A stretch of DNA of 32,000 nucleotides from Candidatus Methanoperedens sp. (GCA_027460535.1 JAPZAR010000024.1:102830-134829); one strand, 5' to 3'; shown: positions 2,896 to 31,881, counted from the first letter of the stretch. The notes: generated by a model not told the origin, from the sequence alone. Numbers and translations: made by a program.

Positions 2896-3372
2896 ATGAT
2901 ACCGATAGAAAAATCCTCAGGCATAGGCGGCATGCTCACGGCATTCAGGAAACTTGTACGGGGCAGGGAAAAGATAACCTTCATAGGCTGCCCGGGCTGG
3001 TGCAACCCTTTCGCTGAGCTGCTTGGTTATGTCCTGCGCGATGCAGGGAAAGAAATGGTCTTTATTCCGAACCTGAGGAAAGGTATGGCTGTAAAGGTAA
3101 TAATGACAGATTACGGCATGCAGCTCGGAGAGAAAGCCGATCCTTCCTCTGACACGGTGGTACTTCTTGGAGGCCTTGCGATGCCCAAGATGGAAGTTGA
3201 TGTTAATGATCTCAAGACACTGATCAATGAGGTCACGGATGGGCATTCCGGAAAGCAGATACTTGGGGTCTGCATCGGCGGGGTTTTCCAGAAAGCAGGA
3301 TGGGATAAGCTGGTCGATTTTGATTACCTGATGGACGCAGATATGGAAGTCACGACATACGCGTTCAAATGA
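2896..3372 (+). CDS. conserved archaeal hypothetical protein (DUF2124-like)
   Basis: 158-aa ORF containing ITFIGCPGWCNPFAELLGYVLRD. Its 3' end overlaps the next gene (ATGA at 3369-3372). The family assignment is from memory only. Confidence 0.4.
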   Translation: MIPIEKSSGIGGMLTAFRKLVRGREKITFIGCPGWCNPFAELLGYVLRDAGKEMVFIPNLRKGMAVKVIMTDYGMQLGEKADPSSDTVVLLGGLAMPKMEVDVNDLKTLINEVTDGHSGKQILGVCIGGVFQKAGWDKLVDFDYLMDADMEVTTYAFK

Positions 3373-10994: not shown

Positions 10995-11465
10995 TTAATA
11001 TCCGTATTCATGCGAACGAGAGATAAAATTATCCCACTCTTTTCTCTTCGGAAAATTTGAATTCAAAGGAGGAAGTTCGCCATGAGTTTTAAAATATTTC
11101 ACAATAGCTTCTCCCTCAAATTGTTCTATTTCTTTTGTTTTATAATATGAATATTCCAAGTCCTTTGATTCAATTTTTATATTCACTTTTCTTAACAGAT
11201 AAATCATATTACTCGCGGGGTGACCACCCATGTTTTTTAAAGCCCCTCCGGCTTCGAACCCCTTTAGAAACCTTTTACGTCCTTTTTCCATATCGCCATT
11301 TTTACCAATATAAAGTACACCTTCCGAATCTTCCTTTAACCATCGAGGTATTACGACTGGTTTTTTATCTTTAAGAAGTCTTATTCTATATACTGCTGGA
11401 TTCGATTCCGCGGAATCTTCAATGTTTCTCCATTCTGTCCAATAAAGAATAGGGGTAATATCCAT
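10995..11465 (-). CDS. GIY-YIG-like nuclease-domain protein (tentative)
   Basis: 156-aa ORF. PAVYRIRLL...GVLYIGKNGDMEKGRKRF, then FEGEAIVKYF...LPPLNSNF, resemble the GIY...YIG...R...E...N motifs. The GIY-YIG spacing is about 25 aa, longer than canonical. Confidence 0.4.
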   Translation of the reverse strand: MDITPILYWTEWRNIEDSAESNPAVYRIRLLKDKKPVVIPRWLKEDSEGVLYIGKNGDMEKGRKRFLKGFEAGGALKNMGGHPASNMIYLLRKVNIKIESKDLEYSYYKTKEIEQFEGEAIVKYFKTHGELPPLNSNFPKRKEWDNFISRSHEYGY

Positions 11466-11633
11466 ATTATCACTCAGCTTTCATTACAAAATTAAACATG
11501 ATAAAATTATCGAAATTATCCCCCGACTTTTGACATGTCATTCTATCCCCGAAGACTCGACGGAACCTCTCAGTAGAAACATATATATATATTAAATTTC
11601 AGAATCATGTGTTAATAGATAGAAAATTTAAAT

Positions 11634-11676
11634 AAATTGGGTGGTATATTAAGAATGAAATTGGGTGGTATATTAA
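11634..11676 (+). repeat. 19-bp tandem direct repeat AAATTGGGTGGTATATTAA (2 copies, 24-bp period)
   Basis: The copies at 11634-11652 and 11658-11676 are identical and straddle the ATG at 11655. Confidence 0.85.
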
Positions 11677-12317
11677 AAATAGTTCCTGAAGATGATAGAA
11701 ATTTCACTCAAATCGATAATCTTGCTACGTTGAAACAAAAAGTCAAAGAAAGTAAAAGAAATATCATAATAATCCCTTTCGCTTCCGTAATTATTCTTAT
11801 TGTAACAGCAATAGTAATAGCGAAATTCTTTTCGGCACCCGTTCCCCCTCCACCTAGTTTAACAGGGATAACCATATTTGCGGTAATCTACTTTATCGCA
11901 CAGTTATCCGAAAGAGTCACCGAACTATTCAGCGACGTTTCAGTAAAGGGAAGTTCTCCAAGATTAGGTGAATACACGAGACATATAAGTTACATTGATA
12001 TGGTTATTAAAAATACCATTGATAAAAACACGAGAACTCTATTAGAGTTAGACCATCCGTCAATACATGATATGAGACAACTTATTTACTATAATGAGTT
12101 ACAAAGTTACTATGACAAGAGAAATAGGGAGATTATACTTTGGGCTGTCCCCTCATTATTCGCAGTTATATTCACATCACTGACATTAGGGTTGTTTGGG
12201 ATTATTGGAATAACTTACATACCACACGTATGGGATTCGTTATTCAGCGGGATGATCATTGGAGGCGGAACAAAGCCATTACACGATTTAATATCTTACA
12301 TACAAAGTAAACCATAA
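11655..12317 (+). CDS. hypothetical integral membrane protein
   Basis: The ORF has hydrophobic segments IIIIPFASVIILIVTAIVIAKFF, ITIFAVIYFIAQL and ILWAVPSLFAVIFTSLTLGLFGIIGITYI. I preferred the ATG at 11655 over the TTG at 11637 used by the track. Confidence 0.5.
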   Translation: MKLGGILKIVPEDDRNFTQIDNLATLKQKVKESKRNIIIIPFASVIILIVTAIVIAKFFSAPVPPPPSLTGITIFAVIYFIAQLSERVTELFSDVSVKGSSPRLGEYTRHISYIDMVIKNTIDKNTRTLLELDHPSIHDMRQLIYYNELQSYYDKRNREIILWAVPSLFAVIFTSLTLGLFGIIGITYIPHVWDSLFSGMIIGGGTKPLHDLISYIQSKP

Positions 12318-12450
12318 AACCACATTCAGTGGCAACTGGCAATATTTATAGTCGCAGATAATCTACATTAATGAGGTCGTAAGCTCTCTTTTTTTTTGCG
12401 GATGAAAAAAACGATAAAAAAAGAGAACCTGGTTTACCACACCAAGTCGA

Positions 12451-12520
12451 ATAAGAAAGAGTGATTGCTCACTCTCTCTCTTCCAAGAACCGTACTTGCG
12501 ACTTTCACCGCATACGGCTC
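12451..12520 (-). mobile_element. group II intron 3' remnant: domain V (12487-12520) plus a domain VI-like hairpin (12451-12480)
   Basis: The minus strand reads GAGCCGTATGCGGTGAAAGTCGCAAGTACGGTTC, 34 nt. It has the AGC triad, a GAAA tetraloop and a 2-nt AA bulge, which is the textbook domain V architecture. It is followed by GAGAGAGAGTGA-GCAA-TCACTCTTTCTTAT, ending in AT. No RT ORF or 5' GUGYG is found upstream. Confidence 0.7.
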
Positions 12521-12662
12521 AAGCGTTCGATAACCCTTTAAATAGGCCAGCAGTTATTTGTCATATATATGAATCATTTGATTCATGGTCAGTTTCCCAT
12601 ACGTTAAAAAAGTCACAAGATTTATAACTGTTTCATGACATTGCATAATTGCAGGTGAAAAA

Positions 12663-12845
12663 ATGCCTTACATATATAAAGTTAAAAATATCGGAGGAAC
12701 AAAACCAGGGAAAGCGATAGAAAAAAAGTTGAATGACCTTGGAAGCGAGGATTGGGAGTTAATAGCTTTCCAATGCAATAATGATAAGACTTTAACAGGA
12801 ATATTCAAAAAGGTCAAATTGTCATCAGAGAATTCTGGCGCATAA
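12663..12845 (+). CDS. DUF4177-like small protein
   Basis: 60-aa ORF preceded by AGGTGA. YIYKVKNIGG...KLNDLGSEDWELIAF resembles the DUF4177 pattern. Confidence 0.5.
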   Translation: MPYIYKVKNIGGTKPGKAIEKKLNDLGSEDWELIAFQCNNDKTLTGIFKKVKLSSENSGA

Positions 12846-12885
12846 TAGCTATTTCATTCATAGCTACAAAGAACTTCCAGCCTTT

Positions 12886-26316: not shown

Positions 26317-26694
26317 TTGTTCAGGAGATTTTTGGAATCGTACATCGATGTCTGCAATAATATCGTGACAGAATCCGCCAATTCGGTTCTGATGTTCGAG
26401 GCAGGGGAGCAGGCCGCGATGGACCTTAAGACCACGAAGCTTGAGGATATAACTCTGGAATTTGAGAAAGACGAACTAAAAGTATCAATTGAGGTATCCG
26501 AAAAAAAAGTCGCGTTCAGGATCAAAGGCCTGCCGTTGTCCGGGAAAAAATGTAAATATTGTGATATCCTGAGAGGATTCCTGGGTGGAGTATCGCGAAA
26601 ACATCTCGATACCAGGTATTATTGCAAAAAGGGCGAGGAATGCGCTCTTGAAGGGTCGGATGAATGCCTTTTCATGGCGGAGCTGATCGAATGA
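26317..26694 (+). CDS. V4R-domain (4-vinyl-reductase-like) small protein
   Basis: SVLMFEAGEQAA...CDILRGFLGGV...EECALEGSDECLFMAEL resembles the V4R pattern. The TTG start sits directly after a stop codon, so the start is uncertain. Confidence 0.45.
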   Translation: MFRRFLESYIDVCNNIVTESANSVLMFEAGEQAAMDLKTTKLEDITLEFEKDELKVSIEVSEKKVAFRIKGLPLSGKKCKYCDILRGFLGGVSRKHLDTRYYCKKGEECALEGSDECLFMAELIE

Positions 26695-26762: not shown

Positions 26763-27371
26763 ATGCCAAAGGATTTGACTGTAACCCTGAGCGACCTGGA
26801 ATACGAGATTCTCAAAAGGTTAAAAATAGTTGAGGGCGAGGATGGAGTAAAGCTAAGAAATCTTTTGAGACTTTATGTTTCCACAATCCCCGAGCTGAAA
26901 TCATCTGAATATGCCCTGAAAAGGGCTGAAAACAAGGAAGAGATCGAAACGATCCTCAGGAATGTGTGGGCTTCATATGAACTTACAGATAATCCTACAG
27001 AGCAGTGGAAAGAAGAGAAAATAAACAAATTGATCAGCGACCTAACGGAGATCAACGCACTTGTAAAAATCGGGGAAAAACAATTCATTCCAACAAATAA
27101 ATTCAGAAGTCTGTTCAAATCATTGCTTCATGATATTGCATCCGAAATGAAGGATGTGGATGAATATACAGCAGCGTGCATAGCCACGATCCAGCTTCTG
27201 ATGGAGTTCGGTGCAGGAAGCCTGAGTAACGAGACCATAAGCGACGGAACCATCCTGATCAATGAAGGATGGATGTTTGCATATGCGACAGCGATGAAGA
27301 AGGCGAGGGAGTTCATGAAAACAAAGAAAATATTCGCAGAAATACCCGCGCAGATACCATCACAGGTATGA
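26763..27371 (+). CDS. hypothetical protein with a possible RHH-like N-terminus
   Basis: 202-aa ORF preceded by AAGGTG. The N-terminus KDLTVTLSDLEYEILKRL loosely resembles a ribbon-helix-helix strand-helix. Its 3' end overlaps the convergent radical SAM gene by 12 nt. Confidence 0.4.
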   Translation: MPKDLTVTLSDLEYEILKRLKIVEGEDGVKLRNLLRLYVSTIPELKSSEYALKRAENKEEIETILRNVWASYELTDNPTEQWKEEKINKLISDLTEINALVKIGEKQFIPTNKFRSLFKSLLHDIASEMKDVDEYTAACIATIQLLMEFGAGSLSNETISDGTILINEGWMFAYATAMKKAREFMKTKKIFAEIPAQIPSQV

Positions 27372-28535
27372 TAGAACACCGTTGACGTGGCACAATACGG
27401 GGTCTGGCGCGAATATGCCTTTATACTGTTTTGCCCTGAACCTGCAGCCTCCCCTGCATTCGCAAACCATTTCGCAATCACGGCAATCCAGTTTATCCAG
27501 CCCCCATAGATAAGCTCTGCACAGTTCATTCCAGGCTTTTCTTAAGTCGTTGACATCCCCCACTGGTTCATCATCAAAAAACCCGCATTTACTGACACTA
27601 CCGTCAGGGGAGACGGAACACAGATGCGAGCCGCAGGTGTAATCGCCAGTGCTTTCATGGGCTCCTCCCCCGAACCCGTATTTTAATAATGATGCCGCTT
27701 CATCCATATCGGGCATATAATCCGGGTTCTCTTCCAGATTCCCGACAATTGAGGGCACATCCACACTCCATGAAAGGATTTCCATTTCTGAAAAGAGCTT
27801 GTGCATCTCGTCGAATTCCCCTGTATTGTATCTATGAACCATCGTAGCGATCGAAACGGGTATGTTGAAACCGGAGAGTGCTGAAATCCCGGAGATGGCT
27901 TTATCAAAGGAACCTTTTCCACGCAAAATATCATGAGACCTGATGCCGTCAATACTCACCTGAACTTCGTGTACATATTCTGAAAGTTTTTTTGCCGTTT
28001 TCCTGTCTATTAAAGTCCCGTTTGAGAGAATCACTATCCTCAGTTCATGGGAACTCAGGGATTCCAGGAGTTCCCAGAACCTTGCATGCATCAAAGGTTC
28101 CCCGCCTGAGATCATGAGTTTCAGACCTCCCATTTCTTCAAACTGGGAGACTGCTTTTTCAAAAAGGCCGATTTCAATATCTTTATTTCCTGATCTTCCA
28201 AGATAGCAATGTTTGCATTTGAGATTGCATTTCTCGGTGATGTTCAAAAGAAGGTAACGCAGCGAAGGGTTTGGAGATTTGCTAACTTTTATTTTTCTCA
28301 CCCCCGCCGACATCAGAAGCATACCCTCGCTTTGCATGTATTCTATTGATTCTTTCTCACTTTCAGGGATAATTCTAGATGAGGAATGCTTGCCATCGCA
28401 TTTTTTCAAGAACTCAAATGCTTCTTCGTCCAGCTCATATAATTGATCTTCGGCTATGTTGTAAACATAAGGCGCTTCAAGCGACCTCAGCACAAAATCA
28501 GGTGAAAGAACAGGGAAGTACTCAGCCGAGGGCAT
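27360..28535 (-). CDS. radical SAM/SPASM-domain enzyme with an N-terminal PqqD-like (RRE-like) domain: putative peptide maturase
   Basis: The CNLKCKHC (CxxxCxxC) radical SAM cluster motif is present. The C-terminal CSVSPDGSVSKCG...CRDCEMVCECRGGC...C is a SPASM-type auxiliary-cluster region. The first ~85 aa (LYELDEEAFEFLKKCDGKHSSSRII...IEYMQSEGMLL) resemble PqqD/RiPP recognition elements. Confidence 0.8.
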   Translation of the reverse strand: MPSAEYFPVLSPDFVLRSLEAPYVYNIAEDQLYELDEEAFEFLKKCDGKHSSSRIIPESEKESIEYMQSEGMLLMSAGVRKIKVSKSPNPSLRYLLLNITEKCNLKCKHCYLGRSGNKDIEIGLFEKAVSQFEEMGGLKLMISGGEPLMHARFWELLESLSSHELRIVILSNGTLIDRKTAKKLSEYVHEVQVSIDGIRSHDILRGKGSFDKAISGISALSGFNIPVSIATMVHRYNTGEFDEMHKLFSEMEILSWSVDVPSIVGNLEENPDYMPDMDEAASLLKYGFGGGAHESTGDYTCGSHLCSVSPDGSVSKCGFFDDEPVGDVNDLRKAWNELCRAYLWGLDKLDCRDCEMVCECRGGCRFRAKQYKGIFAPDPVLCHVNGVLSYL

Positions 28536-28680
28536 CTCTAATCTCTTCCTGGGAAATTTTGCCGCTCTTCAGCATACTTTTTAAAACTTTAAATGCGGCA
28601 CATTCAAGCTCCATGTCATCTTCTTTGAAAAACTCGCAATGAGTGCAAATGAGCTCGACACAGGGATTCTTATTGGTCAT
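28522..28680 (-). CDS. 52-aa Cys-motif small protein (candidate substrate or accessory protein of the maturase)
   Basis: Below the track cutoff. My translation is MTNKNPCVELICTHCEFFKEDDMELECAAFKVLKSMLKSGKISQEEIRDALG. Its stop (TGA 28522-28524) lies inside the maturase gene, a 14-nt overlap. Confidence 0.5.
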   Translation of the reverse strand: MTNKNPCVELICTHCEFFKEDDMELECAAFKVLKSMLKSGKISQEEIRDALG

Positions 28681-28745
28681 CGGTTCACTTTAAACAGGTT
28701 ATTCCTTGATATCCTTAGGCATTTAGAGCAACGGCTATGCTTTTC

Positions 28746-28769
28746 AAAAAAAATGAAAGAAATCATTTT
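28746..28769 (-). terminator. hairpin plus T8 run immediately after the 21-aa peptide gene (candidate attenuator or terminator)
   Basis: The minus strand reads AAAATGA-TTTCTT-TCATTTT-TTTT, a 7-bp stem (plus-strand 28750-28756 / 28763-28769) running into eight T. Oligo-T tracts terminate archaeal transcription. Confidence 0.4.
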
Positions 28770-28773
28770 CTTT

Positions 28774-28839
28774 CTATGCGCATGAGGAATGACACTTGCA
28801 GGTTCCTTTTGCGATTTTCTTGAGTTTAAGAATCTTCAT
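28774..28839 (-). CDS. 21-aa Cys-rich peptide, candidate RiPP precursor
   Basis: Below the track cutoff. The minus strand reads GGAGGAAATTAC-ATG AAG ATT CTT AAA CTC AAG AAA ATC GCA AAA GGA ACC TGC AAG TGT CAT TCC TCA TGC GCA TAG, giving MKILKLKKIAKGTCKCHSSCA. It has a strong SD at ideal spacing and lies upstream of the rSAM/SPASM gene on the same strand. Confidence 0.45.
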   Translation of the reverse strand: MKILKLKKIAKGTCKCHSSCA

Positions 28840-28889
28840 GTAATTTCCTCCCATTGAATATTCGGATTGATTACTTATGTAGTTTATGG

Positions 28890-29522
28890 TCATATCCCCT
28901 CGATTTCCTGCGTTTTCCGAATCATCGATTTGCACACAGCCATTTCAGCCTGCGTGTTGACATTCAGCGCCAGTTCTTCATCTTCCAGGACGAGAACGAA
29001 TTCGTCCTGTTCCTCCCTTATCCTGTCCGCCTCAAGGATATTTATGCCGCAGGGAACCACAAACATATTGTTCTTGCGGAAAACAGTATCGGGGCGAAGA
29101 CCCAATCTGGTGCACACATCCAGTTTCATATTGACCGAAAGAGCTGGCTTTTTCATATATCCATGTTTTTCTATAATCCTGTCTATGAGCTCTGAAGTAA
29201 CAAGGGGCAGATCGGCCATTATGAAAAGCACGTGTCCCTTAATTTTGGCTTTTTCCACGGCTGAGACCATATCATTAACGAAACCACGGCCTGAGGTCGG
29301 GATTATCTCTATGTTCCCATGATTTTTCTTAAAATCGGAAAGCCATGAAACCGTTTCTTTGACCTTTGGTGAGGTTGCAACGAATATCCTGCCTATTTTT
29401 TTTGAGCCAAGAAGAGCTGAGAGGACATAATGGATCATCGGTTTCCCGCATAGATCGGTGAGAGGTTTCTCTTTCTCACCAAGCCTTTTCCCCATGCCGC
29501 CAGCCATCACTATTGCATCCAT
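28890..29522 (-). CDS. cobY: adenosylcobinamide-phosphate guanylyltransferase (archaeal CobY type)
   Basis: MDAIVMAGGMGKRLG is a nucleotidyltransferase N-terminus. The gene is ~200 aa, lies immediately downstream of cobS and overlaps it. Confidence 0.7.
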   Translation of the reverse strand: MDAIVMAGGMGKRLGEKEKPLTDLCGKPMIHYVLSALLGSKKIGRIFVATSPKVKETVSWLSDFKKNHGNIEIIPTSGRGFVNDMVSAVEKAKIKGHVLFIMADLPLVTSELIDRIIEKHGYMKKPALSVNMKLDVCTRLGLRPDTVFRKNNMFVVPCGINILEADRIREEQDEFVLVLEDEELALNVNTQAEMAVCKSMIRKTQEIEGI

Positions 29523-30846: not shown

Positions 30847-30881
30847 TATTTCACCTGCTAACTTCTATTAGCAAAAATTCT

Positions 30882-31170
30882 GCTTTGAAACGTATTTAAA
30901 CTGCAGATAAAAGCACATAAATGCAGATGATTCTTAATGAAACTAATGCCGTTATCCTTTAGCTTTGAATTGAATTTTAACCGCAGATTGGCGCTATGAA
31001 ACGTATTTAAACCGCAGATGAACGCAGATAAACGCAGATGGTTTTTAATGAAACTGCTGTCATCATTTTTTTTCTTTGAAACCAATTTCAACCGCGAATT
31101 GATGCTTTGAGAAATATTCAACCGCATATCGGCGCTATAAAACGGTTTTAGTCCGCAGATGGGCGCAGAT
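30882..31170 (+). repeat. array of degenerate ~27-bp repeats ending in (C/T)GCAGAT
   Basis: Six units of consensus GCTTTGAAAnnTATTTAAACCGCAGAT lie at 30882-30908, 30962-30988, 30991-31019, 31073-31099, 31104-31129 and 31132-31160. A tandem CGCAGAT-GAA-CGCAGAT-AAA-CGCAGAT lies at 31013-31039. Further heptamers lie at 31164-31170, 31210-31216 and 31350-31356. Confidence 0.75.
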
Positions 31171-31219
31171 AAATAATGATAACATAAGTCGTTTCGGACA
31201 TTTTTTAACCGCAGATGAA

Positions 31220-31342
31220 CCTCCCGAGTCGCGCCTCGGGAGGGGGCATCCACGTCAACCGTTGCGCCAGTTGACGTCGCCCACACGTATGGTTTTGCCA
31301 TACGTGGAGATACGTGTCTATGCGTCACGGCGAGCATGACGC
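31220..31342. other. cluster of four consecutive GC-rich hairpins
   Basis: The stems are 31220-31228/31235-31243 (9 bp, CCTCCCGAG/CTCGGGAGG), 31252-31259/31270-31277 (8 bp, ACGTCAAC/GTTGACGT), 31284-31292/31298-31306 (9 bp, CACGTATGG/CCATACGTG) and 31322-31327/31337-31342 (6 bp, GCGTCA/TGACGC). They lie just downstream of the GxxExxY gene stop. Confidence 0.6.
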
Positions 31343-31401
31343 CGATAAACGCAGATGCGTATTGGACAATTCTGCGCATGTCAGCGGGTATATGTGGTTT
31401 T

Positions 31402-31797
31402 TTATATACCATTCACTATCCTCTTAATTTCAACTCTTGGCTTGCTGAAATTGATAAGCAAGCACAGTTTTAGACCCGTAATTCTAAGATAATTCAAGCA
31501 CTGTGCAATATGAATATCATCGAATTCCTTAACGGTTTTTAATTCAACTAAGATTTCATCCTCAACCAGAATATCCGCGATGTAATCGCCGACTAATTCA
31601 TTTTTGTAATATACCTTTAACGGCGCCTGCGGGAATGTTTTTAGCCCTTTCAGGTTAAGCTCCACCGACAGTGCATTTTCATAGACTTTTTCAAGAAAGC
31701 CAGCGCCAAGAATATTGCTTACTTCAAACGCCGCGCCAATAATCTTCTCTGATAATTGATTCAATCTATCTTCGTTCGCATTTACCTGGAGTGCCAT
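31402..31797 (-). CDS. GxxExxY protein (PD-(D/E)xK_3 family)
   Basis: 131-aa ORF. IIGAAFEVSNILGAGFLEKVYENAL carries the eponymous GxxExxY motif, and ...DILVEDEILVELKTV... is a D...ExK-like core. Confidence 0.8.
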   Translation of the reverse strand: MALQVNANEDRLNQLSEKIIGAAFEVSNILGAGFLEKVYENALSVELNLKGLKTFPQAPLKVYYKNELVGDYIADILVEDEILVELKTVKEFDDIHIAQCLNYLRITGLKLCLLINFSKPRVEIKRIVNGI

Positions 31798-31851: not shown

Positions 31852-31881
31852 ATCTGCGTTCATCTGCGTTTATCTGCGTTC
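31852..31881 (-). repeat. three tandem 10-mers containing ATCTGCG, the inverted counterpart of the CGCAGAT array
   Basis: The plus strand reads ATCTGCGTTC ATCTGCGTTT ATCTGCGTTC. Its reverse complement, CGCAGAT-AAA-CGCAGAT-GAA-CGCAGAT, matches 31013-31039 apart from swapped spacers. Confidence 0.8.

Follow-up and report, generated by a model that had tools for sequence, protein, structure and literature searches.

A conserved 20-21-residue cysteine peptide, a radical SAM/SPASM enzyme and a three-cysteine helper protein form a probable peptide-modification cassette in Candidatus Methanoperedens and uncultured anaerobic bacteria

Introduction

Does a 21-codon open reading frame (ORF) lying upstream of a gene for a radical S-adenosylmethionine (rSAM) enzyme encode a peptide on which that enzyme acts? 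The question is raised by a stretch of 32,000 nucleotides (nt) from a Candidatus Methanoperedens metagenome-assembled genome (MAG), hereafter the window, whose first letter is the origin of all positions given for it. From the sequence alone, an earlier reading (the sequence-only reading) had proposed here a locus like those of peptides that are ribosomally synthesized and modified post-translationally (RiPPs), consisting of a Cys-rich peptide of 21 amino acids (aa), a 52-aa Cys-motif protein and an rSAM enzyme that carries a SPASM domain and an N-terminal segment resembling a RiPP recognition element (RRE). We find that the peptide, the 52-aa protein and the enzyme recur together across phyla, and we conclude that they probably constitute a three-gene, RiPP-type peptide-modification cassette, made up of a peptide substrate, an rSAM/SPASM enzyme and a three-Cys helper. 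The idea of a RiPP-like locus in an archaeon thus holds as far as the linkage of peptide and enzyme is concerned, but the locus is not specifically archaeal, being widespread in uncultured anaerobic bacteria. Three matters had been fixed beforehand as capable of overturning the proposal, namely whether homologous enzymes have an adjacent small Cys-containing ORF, whether the peptide is conserved, and to which class the enzyme belongs; the results on all three, given below, leave it standing.

The cassette in the window

The cassette genes lie on the minus strand. Their coordinates, the GGAGG before the peptide ATG and the overlap of the 52-aa ORF with the enzyme gene all proved to be as the sequence-only reading had described them.

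28774-28839, minus strand: peptide gene, 21-aa product MKILKLKKIAKGTCKCHSSCA, presumed substrate (from its sequence and its homologues)
28847-28851, minus strand: Shine-Dalgarno-like GGAGG, 7 nt ahead of the peptide ATG
28746-28773, minus strand: A-U-rich stem-loop directly after the peptide stop, ending in or overlapping a run of eight T (T8, 28746-28753)
28522-28680, minus strand: gene for the 52-aa three-Cys helical accessory protein, overlapping the enzyme gene by 14 nt
27360-28535, minus strand: gene for the 391-aa radical SAM/SPASM enzyme (MCZ7357376.1, 'radical SAM protein'), presumed peptide maturase
28266-28535, minus strand: enzyme N-terminal domain, residues 1-90, with RRE/winged-helix-like topology in the predicted structure
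28206-28229, minus strand: enzyme CxxxCxxC (C103, C107, C110), the radical-SAM [4Fe-4S] cluster motif, invariant in alignments
27390-27635, minus strand: enzyme SPASM domain, residues 301-382, matching TIGR04085 and holding seven conserved Cys

The peptide gene accompanies one enzyme family across genomes

A stretch of 8 kb contains 123 ORFs of at least 20 aa. A single 21-codon ORF is insignificant in itself, and the reality of the peptide gene therefore rests on its conservation across genomes. We translated 84 loci in six frames and searched them for a C-terminal C-[KR]-C-x2-4-C followed by a stop, a looser pattern being added later. In this genome scan, a 20-21-aa ORF of the form M-x-I-x-K...CKCxxSC with a strong Shine-Dalgarno (SD) sequence adjoined 17 of the 23 family enzymes, a few hundred nt away, and none of the 57 other rSAM/SPASM enzymes fetched alongside (Fisher p ~1e-12, a value inflated by relatedness between the loci). 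The family loci span Methanoperedens-like archaea and six or more bacterial phyla, among them Dehalococcoidia, Nitrospirota, Thermoleophilia and other Actinomycetota, Rokubacteria, Desulfobacterales and Geobacteraceae. An adjacent, conserved small Cys ORF is thus found beside homologous enzymes elsewhere and not beside the controls. Two further Methanoperedens contigs, L085 and L086, also carry a matching ORF. All matches begin with M-x-I-x-K-[VI], though this was absent from the search pattern, and each of the 20 tabulated homologues has a GGAGG or GAGGTG SD at the same distance.

The linkage also emerges when the search starts from the peptide. A DNA pattern for the peptide alone, run against the metagenomes of the Joint Genome Institute (JGI), returned at least 120 loci. 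In 118 of the 120 listed, the stop codon falls 0-1 codon after the last Cys, a feature that the pattern does not impose (3/64 would be expected for an immediate stop), and 81 of them hold a member of the enzyme family. Of the 39 listed peptide loci flanked by 1.5 kb or more on each side, 31 have the enzyme and 26 the small Cys module. The genetic linkage of a short precursor to a modifying enzyme, which serves as a criterion for RiPPs, is therefore seen from either partner (17/23 enzyme-first, 81 of the 120 listed peptide-first). The position of the peptide gene varies: it lies downstream of the enzyme in 64 of the 81 listed enzyme-bearing loci and upstream in the window and 14 others, is occasionally on the opposite strand, and sometimes stands alone.

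Stand-alone peptide genes, with no enzyme within flanks of 2.5-10 kb, occur at L141 (2696-2761, minus strand), L094, L104, L118, L122, L127 and L132. The set includes a Methanoperedens-type peptide, MKIRKIKKTSRGTCKCHSSCA.

The peptide is conserved as a protein

Aligning the 122 unique relatives, all 20-21 aa long, gives the consensus M-x-I-x-K-V-x-K-K-x4-C-K-C-x-x-S-C, which divides into a basic N-terminal half, M-x-I-x-K-[VI]-x-K-K, and a C-terminal core, C14-K15-C16-x-x-S19-C20. M1, K5, C14, C16 and C20 are invariant and I3, K15 and S19 nearly so; the mean net charge is +6, and ten of the 122 carry one extra residue after the last Cys. If selection acts on the peptide itself, then codons should change more freely than residues, and between the window and L086 there are 12 synonymous and 4 non-synonymous differences, the core GTCKCHSSCA being identical despite changes in 7 of its 10 codons. 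The peptide is under purifying selection at the protein level, and the 21-aa ORF is a real, conserved gene. A 53-aa version of the ORF, extended to a GTG start (28774-28935), was rejected because all homologues start at the Met of M-x-I-x-K behind an SD.

The sequence-only reading had called both small ORFs unannotated. That is right for the peptide, which, with five relatives (six tested), is absent from a collection of 15 billion predicted proteins and has no matching model in Pfam or NCBIfam; at 20 aa the precursor is so short that gene callers have all passed it over. It is wrong for the 52-aa ORF, whose product matches exactly a hypothetical protein recorded by NCBI for Ca. Methanoperedens sp. 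(P0121, O8C66_10025).

Directly behind the peptide stop, the A-U-rich hairpin has a folding energy of -12.8 kcal/mol (z = -3.1; none of 200 shuffles folds as well), and four of the six Methanoperedens-type loci (window, L085, L086, L136) have a T-run of 6-8 behind the peptide gene. A scan for G+C-rich terminators did not call the stem-loop at 28746-28773, and a scan for bacterial-type promoters and terminators, which is not designed for archaea, returned nothing around the peptide gene. To judge from its sequence, the stem-loop with its T8 resembles an archaeal oligo-T terminator and is possibly a leaky stop between the peptide and enzyme genes; such an arrangement would fit a separately dosed small peptide transcript.

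The enzyme resembles RiPP maturases and is named by no family model tested

The sequence-only reading had placed both a CxxxCxxC motif and a multi-Cys SPASM region in the enzyme, and both are there. Pfam reports Radical_SAM (PF04055) at 80.6 bits against a cutoff of 29.5, and otherwise only Fer4_12. The motif reads C103-x3-C107-x2-C110 and, together with GGEP (residues 144-147), is invariant in 29 archaeal and 24 cross-phylum sequences. The Pfam SPASM model does not match the enzyme; the SPASM model TIGR04085 matches its C-terminal 112 residues above threshold (37.7 bits, cutoff 27, E = 2e-9), and all seven SPASM Cys (C301, C317, C351-x2-C354-x5-C360-x3-C364, C382) are conserved family-wide. 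Two extra Cys are not: C339 occurs only in Methanoperedens-type sequences, and C306 in those and in L006, L007 and L027. By these motifs and scores the enzyme belongs to the radical SAM superfamily and its SPASM subfamily.

Below that level, the enzyme's subfamily is named by no Pfam or NCBIfam model tested. It reaches no NCBIfam equivalog; the best is ScmE (110 bits, cutoff 400), and NirJ, AhbD, MftC, WgkB, StsB and AlbA all stay far below their cutoffs, as do the methanogen-type TIGR04083, the CcpM model TIGR04068 and TIGR04463 (12-14 bits, cutoffs 300-525). Its nearest structures are those of RiPP maturases. The closest solved structure by sequence is the sactisynthase SkfB (E = 1.4e-21), and an AlphaFold2 (AF2) model of the enzyme (confidence score, pLDDT, 66) aligns in Foldseek over its whole length to SkfB, CteB, SuiB and TigE, which modify peptides and carry an RRE at the N-terminus, ahead of viperin, anaerobic sulfatase maturase (anSME) and MoaA. 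The concern that the enzyme might cluster with sulfatase, heme or cofactor maturases was thus not borne out.

A second, shorter rSAM paralogue (333-343 aa) that lacks the N-terminal domain is found next to or near the enzyme at L010 (1761-2762, plus strand) and L011 (6427-7458, plus strand).

The N-terminal domain had been compared with PqqD-type recognition elements. In the AF2 model, residues 1-90 form four short strands followed by three helices (pLDDT 50-70), and a profile of residues 1-149 finds CteB as its top match in the PDB, collinear from query residue 42 to chain residue 48. Individual scans add weak matches, to the PqqD Pfam model in one of 24 members (E = 0.019), to TIGR03859 (E = 0.08) and to the N-terminus of CcpM (E = 0.02), and a further sub-threshold match to 'actinodefensin-associated protein B'. 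The PqqD comparison is thus supported by topology and by collinear weak matches, but not by any significant match to PqqD. Collectively, the predicted fold and these matches suggest that the domain is likely to be RRE-like. The control locus L078, considered as a source of genuine PqqD for profile comparison, turned out to be NirJ-like and was set aside.

The 52-aa protein, a probable module of the enzyme

The stop of the 52-aa ORF overlaps the start of the 391-codon enzyme gene by 14 nt. The gene holds the same position in L001, L003, L005, L086 and L087, and the same 14-nt overlap recurs in other Methanoperedens contigs; on this gene arrangement, it is translationally coupled to the enzyme. 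The 56 homologues have in common an invariant core, ICxxCEFFKEDD-LECAAFK, and the consensus of the module is [LIV]-C-x2-C-x-[FY]-[FY]-K ... E-x-C-x-[GA]-[FY]-x-[VIL]-L. Conserved, then, are a CxxC and one further Cys. The first Cys of the window protein (C7) is not, and the description of a Cys-motif protein needs that correction, together with the point, taken from the fusions that follow, that it is best seen as an accessory module of the enzyme.

An iterated profile finds the module beside the bacterial family enzymes too, with the three invariant Cys in C-x2-C-x-[FY]-[FY]-K ... C-x-G-[FY], either once or as a tandem pair, which in Nitrospirota is often transcribed divergently. At least seven bacterial loci (L013, L124, L129, L130, L131, L148, L183) encode the tandem module as an in-frame N-terminal extension of the enzyme; the L129 fusion begins with a Met at the module, and L027 has one module fused and one separate. 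Because it is fused in frame to the enzyme in bacteria, we regard the helper as a subunit or domain of the enzyme rather than as a precursor, and the fusion is evidence of the Rosetta-stone type that both parts work together. Among 1.84 billion representative proteins the profile of the module finds only 71 clusters, all of 38-180 aa. Neither Pfam nor NCBIfam has a model for it or for its bacterial counterparts, and Foldseek finds nothing in the PDB similar to its AF2 model, which has three helices (pLDDT 70).

A proposed reaction

If the cassette works as a peptide-modification system, then the basic N-terminal half of the peptide would be the recognition or leader segment, held by the RRE-like domain of the enzyme, and its C-K-C-x-x-S-C end would be the part modified. 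The enzyme would cleave S-adenosylmethionine at the [4Fe-4S] cluster of its CxxxCxxC motif, yielding a 5'-deoxyadenosyl radical that abstracts a hydrogen from the peptide, while two auxiliary clusters in the SPASM domain would handle the substrate thiol and the electron. The helper would be an obligatory enzyme subunit that probably binds a metal or Fe-S centre, presents the very short peptide, or both. By analogy with CteB, SkfB and AlbA, our best guess is that the most likely product contains one or more intramolecular thioethers from Cys sulfur to carbon, of the sactionine or ranthionine type, and K15 and S19, the only other near-invariant residues of the core, are candidate acceptors. Alternative chemistries, again by analogy, would be thio-oxazole formation, as by SbtM, or a C-terminal oxidative reaction, as by MftC; the latter is disfavoured because 10 of the 122 peptides have a residue after the last Cys. 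The lack of a conserved protease or exporter, and a peptide core that hardly varies from phylum to phylum, make an intracellular function probable for the product, that of a cofactor-like or metal- or redox-active peptide and not of a secreted antibiotic.

Several observations weigh against this proposal. The enzyme model is only moderate, its SPASM part being poorly modelled, and the N-terminal domain, when its profile is used alone, finds nothing in the PDB, which leaves an RRE without a significant sequence match. In Methanoperedens, three enzyme loci (L001, L003, L087) have no peptide gene within 4-10 kb, and about a fifth of the well-flanked peptide genes listed stand alone; the stand-alone genes probably explain the enzyme loci that lack an adjacent one. 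The acceptor residue, and hence the chemistry, is not deducible from sequence. Finally, the lack of a protease and exporter and the conservation of all 20 residues would also fit a micro-protein partner.

Alternative explanations

This last point leads to the alternative that survives best, although we consider it unlikely: the 20-21-aa peptide may remain unmodified and serve as a structural or metal-binding subunit, for instance as a donor of Cys ligands, in a complex that acts on another substrate. A subunit would account for the unusual conservation of every residue across phyla, the 'leader' half included, and for the missing cleavage motif, protease and exporter; moreover, the three Cys of the peptide and the three of each helper module could jointly ligate a metal centre, and metal-related genes (TRASH, YHS, NifU, rubrerythrin) are found near the cassette in some lineages. 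However, those neighbour associations are lineage-specific, and the peptide gene may lie on either side of the enzyme gene, on the opposite strand or elsewhere in the genome, which speaks against a subunit. In the window it appears to have an SD and a terminator-like signal of its own, more typical of a separately dosed substrate, and the pairing of an RRE-like domain with a SPASM domain is, as far as is known, characteristic of enzymes that modify peptides.

Next in order, and improbable in our judgement, is the possibility that the 52-aa protein is the true rSAM substrate, as QhpC is for QhpD and sulfatase is for anSME, with the 21-aa peptide as a micro-protein in an accessory or regulatory role. 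No other neighbour of the enzyme gene is as constant as the 52-aa gene, which is translationally coupled to it and encodes three invariant Cys; those Methanoperedens enzyme genes that have no peptide gene nearby still have the 52-aa gene beside them. Tandem duplication and N-terminal fusion to the enzyme, though, are typical of domains and subunits and not of substrates, the protein is predicted to fold into three helices, and the closest structural relatives of the enzyme act on short, leader-bearing peptides.

Could the enzyme instead be a heme- or cofactor-type rSAM/SPASM protein, similar to NirJ, AhbC or AhbD, or an anaerobic sulfatase maturase, with the small ORFs incidental? Among its highest-scoring partial NCBIfam matches are those to NirJ1, NirJ2 and AhbD, which span the rSAM core at 84-102 bits, and the window locus follows a cobamide operon. 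Yet the NirJ, AhbC and AhbD models, at 83-102 bits against cutoffs of 500-650, fall 4- to 8-fold short and match the core only, the anSME model TIGR03942 scores 12.5 bits against 349, and neither the peptide nor the helper contains the sulfatase target motif C/S-x-P/A-x-R. The cobamide operon gives no better ground. Only 50 nt, the distance reported in the sequence-only reading, separate the end of the cobY-like nucleotidyltransferase gene (28890) from the peptide ATG; cobS is above its NCBIfam cutoff, cobZ is essentially at it (152.2 against 152.5 bits) and the cobY-like gene is below the equivalog cutoffs. But the operon precedes the cassette only in the window and in a 94%-identical relative, L085, and is absent beside it in L001, L003, L086 and L087. 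Because the upstream genes of those other Methanoperedens loci are unrelated, we take the adjacency to be lineage-specific and probably incidental, and a functional tie of the cassette to cobamide synthesis was rejected. Since the enzyme is accompanied across phyla by the peptide and helper genes, the heme/cofactor explanation is effectively refuted, and we give it very little chance.

The least probable explanation is that the 21-aa ORF arose by chance or is a cis-regulatory leader (attenuator) of the downstream genes, as the abundance of short ORFs by chance and its place upstream of the operon, with a hairpin and T-run behind it, might suggest; the former is refuted by 122 unique homologues of fixed length, start and stop with an excess of synonymous changes, and an attenuator role is ruled out because the ORF is downstream of the enzyme in 64 of the 81 listed bacterial loci and sometimes on the opposite strand or alone.

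Relation to known systems

The cassette belongs to none of the known systems with which we compared it, since its scores fall well short on all equivalog models tested. The SCIFF/ranthipeptide system (CteA/CteB; Tte1186; TIGR03973/TIGR03974) comes close in design, with a minimal cassette without conserved exporter or protease, a short Cys-rich precursor that is highly conserved over a broad taxon and an rSAM-SPASM maturase whose RRE has a likely counterpart in our enzyme; CteB is the top PDB sequence match for the N-terminal half of our enzyme and is among the top structural matches. However, the SCIFF peptide has about 45 aa and six Cys, whereas the peptide described here has 20-21 aa and three (CxCxxxC) and does not match the SCIFF model, and on the SCIFF maturase model TIGR03974 the enzyme reaches 11.7 bits where 425 are required, in a match confined to the SPASM part (E = 0.09). 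The three-Cys helper is an addition with respect to SCIFF, and while SCIFF is found in Clostridia, the cassette is found in Methanoperedens and in uncultured Nitrospirota, Desulfobacterota, Chloroflexota and Actinomycetota.

Pyrroloquinoline quinone (PQQ; PqqA/PqqD/PqqE) and mycofactocin (MftA/MftB/MftC) offer a second parallel, having in common with the cassette a very short and strongly conserved peptide, a small accessory protein, in some cases fused to the enzyme, an rSAM-SPASM enzyme and an apparent intracellular role without export genes. Unlike in those systems, the helper here is a Cys-containing three-helix module without a PqqD signature, and the enzyme already has its own RRE-like domain. 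The MftC model TIGR03962 scores 92.8 bits against 265 on the enzyme, and the PqqE model TIGR02109 58-60 against 381 on bacterial members. The peptide is unrelated to MftA and PqqA, its core is based on Cys rather than on the Glu/Tyr of PQQ or the Val-Tyr of mycofactocin, and no downstream tailoring genes are conserved.

The sactipeptide maturases SkfB, AlbA and StsB form Cys thioethers and have an N-terminal peptide-binding domain, which our enzyme probably shares, SkfB being the best structural match both by sequence and by fold. In SkfB a twitch domain takes the place of a full SPASM domain. The sactipeptide models again score low (StsB NF045574, 83 bits against 625, and AlbA NF012164, 66 against 850, on the window enzyme; SkfB TIGR04403, 62 against 300, on the bacterial L023), and sactipeptide clusters normally come with genes for export, immunity and proteases and have much more variable cores, which is not so here. 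Lastly, the thio(seleno)oxazole maturase SbtM (TIGR04082), likewise of the rSAM/SPASM type, acts on Cys in short peptides but makes no thioether from it, showing that Cys-directed SPASM chemistry is not limited to cross-links; its model scores 60 bits against 350 on our enzyme, and its precursor family and architecture differ. Searching full texts by organism, class and core sequence, we found no published description of the cassette, although many subscription papers and most supplements lay outside the coverage, so that a mention in a mining study is possible.

Distribution and neighbouring genes

Homologues of the enzyme at 63-94% identity are many and, where the source names an organism, come from Methanoperedens or related Methanosarcinales assemblies. 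Full-length relatives that include the N-terminal domain, at 36-52% identity, occur in MAGs of Dehalococcoidia and of Nitrospirota, including Ca. Magnetobacterium, and further in Thermoleophilia and other Actinomycetota, Rokubacteria, Desulfobacterales and Geobacteraceae. That all these bacterial hosts are uncultured may explain the missing curated family. All-against-all clustering of the neighbour ORFs from more than 100 loci shows only the peptide, the helper and the enzyme recurring across phyla, and no transporter or protease shared across them. Other neighbours were rejected as cassette genes, amounting to lineage-specific associations and antisense shadow ORFs.

Some of these associations are described here in their own right. 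An ATP-grasp gene (PF02655, 37 bits) lies right after the peptide MTIKKVAKKFSGLCKCKASC, on the same strand, at L128 (1156-2070, minus strand) and at ten similar loci; in this one bacterial lineage (L091, L092, L098, L108, L120 and others) the order is helper, rSAM, peptide, ATP-grasp, and the ATP-grasp protein may be an extra tailoring enzyme. Rubrerythrin or ferritin-like genes adjoin the cassette in clusters of 12, 7 and 5 loci (L133, 6873-7373; L009, 499-969; about 20 further, Nitrospirota-type), and a NifU-type Fe-S scaffold gene is near it in five (for example L101, 2126-2968); these recurrences may reflect shared ancestry rather than function. At L086 a 45-aa TRASH-domain gene (3201-3338, plus strand) follows the peptide; the region 11326-12885 was also noted there, and YHS, PCYCGC, DsbD and cupredoxin genes are nearby. 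Stand-alone peptide genes of the CKCHQSC type adjoin genes for a YHS-fused pyridine-nucleotide-disulfide oxidoreductase and a Met/Gln-rich secreted protein, and L150 (3106-4663, minus strand) and L115 (2159-2800, plus strand) belong to the same metal-related set. We regard a connection of the cassette to heavy metals or copper as an anecdotal hint.

Other features of the window

Two plus-strand genes, of 202 aa (26763-27371) and 125 aa (26317-26694), converge on the 3' end of the enzyme gene, the former overlapping the enzyme stop by 12 nt and the latter having a weakly V4R-like C-terminus (E = 0.016). Both are syntenic in the Methanoperedens contigs L001, L003 and L087 and absent from the bacterial loci. 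An antisense ORF of 87-94 aa at the junction of the 52-aa and enzyme genes (window, 28379-28642, plus strand; L001, L003, 3873-4157, minus strand) appears 'conserved' between loci and was judged to be a shadow of the conserved coding strand and not a gene.

Farther off, a match to the Rfam group II catalytic intron RF00029 at 12446-12522 (minus strand; 62.9 bits, gathering score 40) points to a group II intron or a retroelement in this other part of the window. A GxxExxY-family gene (31402-31797, minus strand; TIGR04256, 142 bits) has arrays of short repeats on both sides (30865-31357 and 31852-31881), of the CGCAGAT(G/A)AACGCAGAT type, which include a tandem duplication of 111 nt and, separated by 812 nt, two inverted arms of 27 nt; the long ORF seen at 30858-31412 is probably an artefact of translating the repeats.

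Significance

If the peptide is modified as proposed, the cassette would represent a new RiPP-like family common to Archaea and at least six bacterial phyla. Characterised archaeal rSAM-peptide systems are, to our knowledge, essentially lacking, and the cassette would add a well-supported one, together with a new small Cys-containing accessory module for rSAM maturases. With three genes, it is small enough for direct reconstitution. The near-invariant core and the lack of export genes point to a housekeeping role, be it as a cofactor, in metal handling or in redox. A more specific idea, which we put forward tentatively, is that an intracellular peptide-derived cofactor or a metal- or redox-active prosthetic peptide, and not an antibiotic, is made from the ultra-conserved 20-residue CxCxxxC peptide with the aid of the previously unrecognised three-Cys module as a chaperone, possibly one that binds Fe-S or metal, and that Methanoperedens and uncultured anaerobic bacteria living in the same sediments have exchanged the system. 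The cassette would then be a new counterpart, in anaerobes, of PQQ and mycofactocin, and its enzyme and helper have many close homologues in assemblies of Ca. Methanoperedens, which are important for anaerobic methane oxidation.

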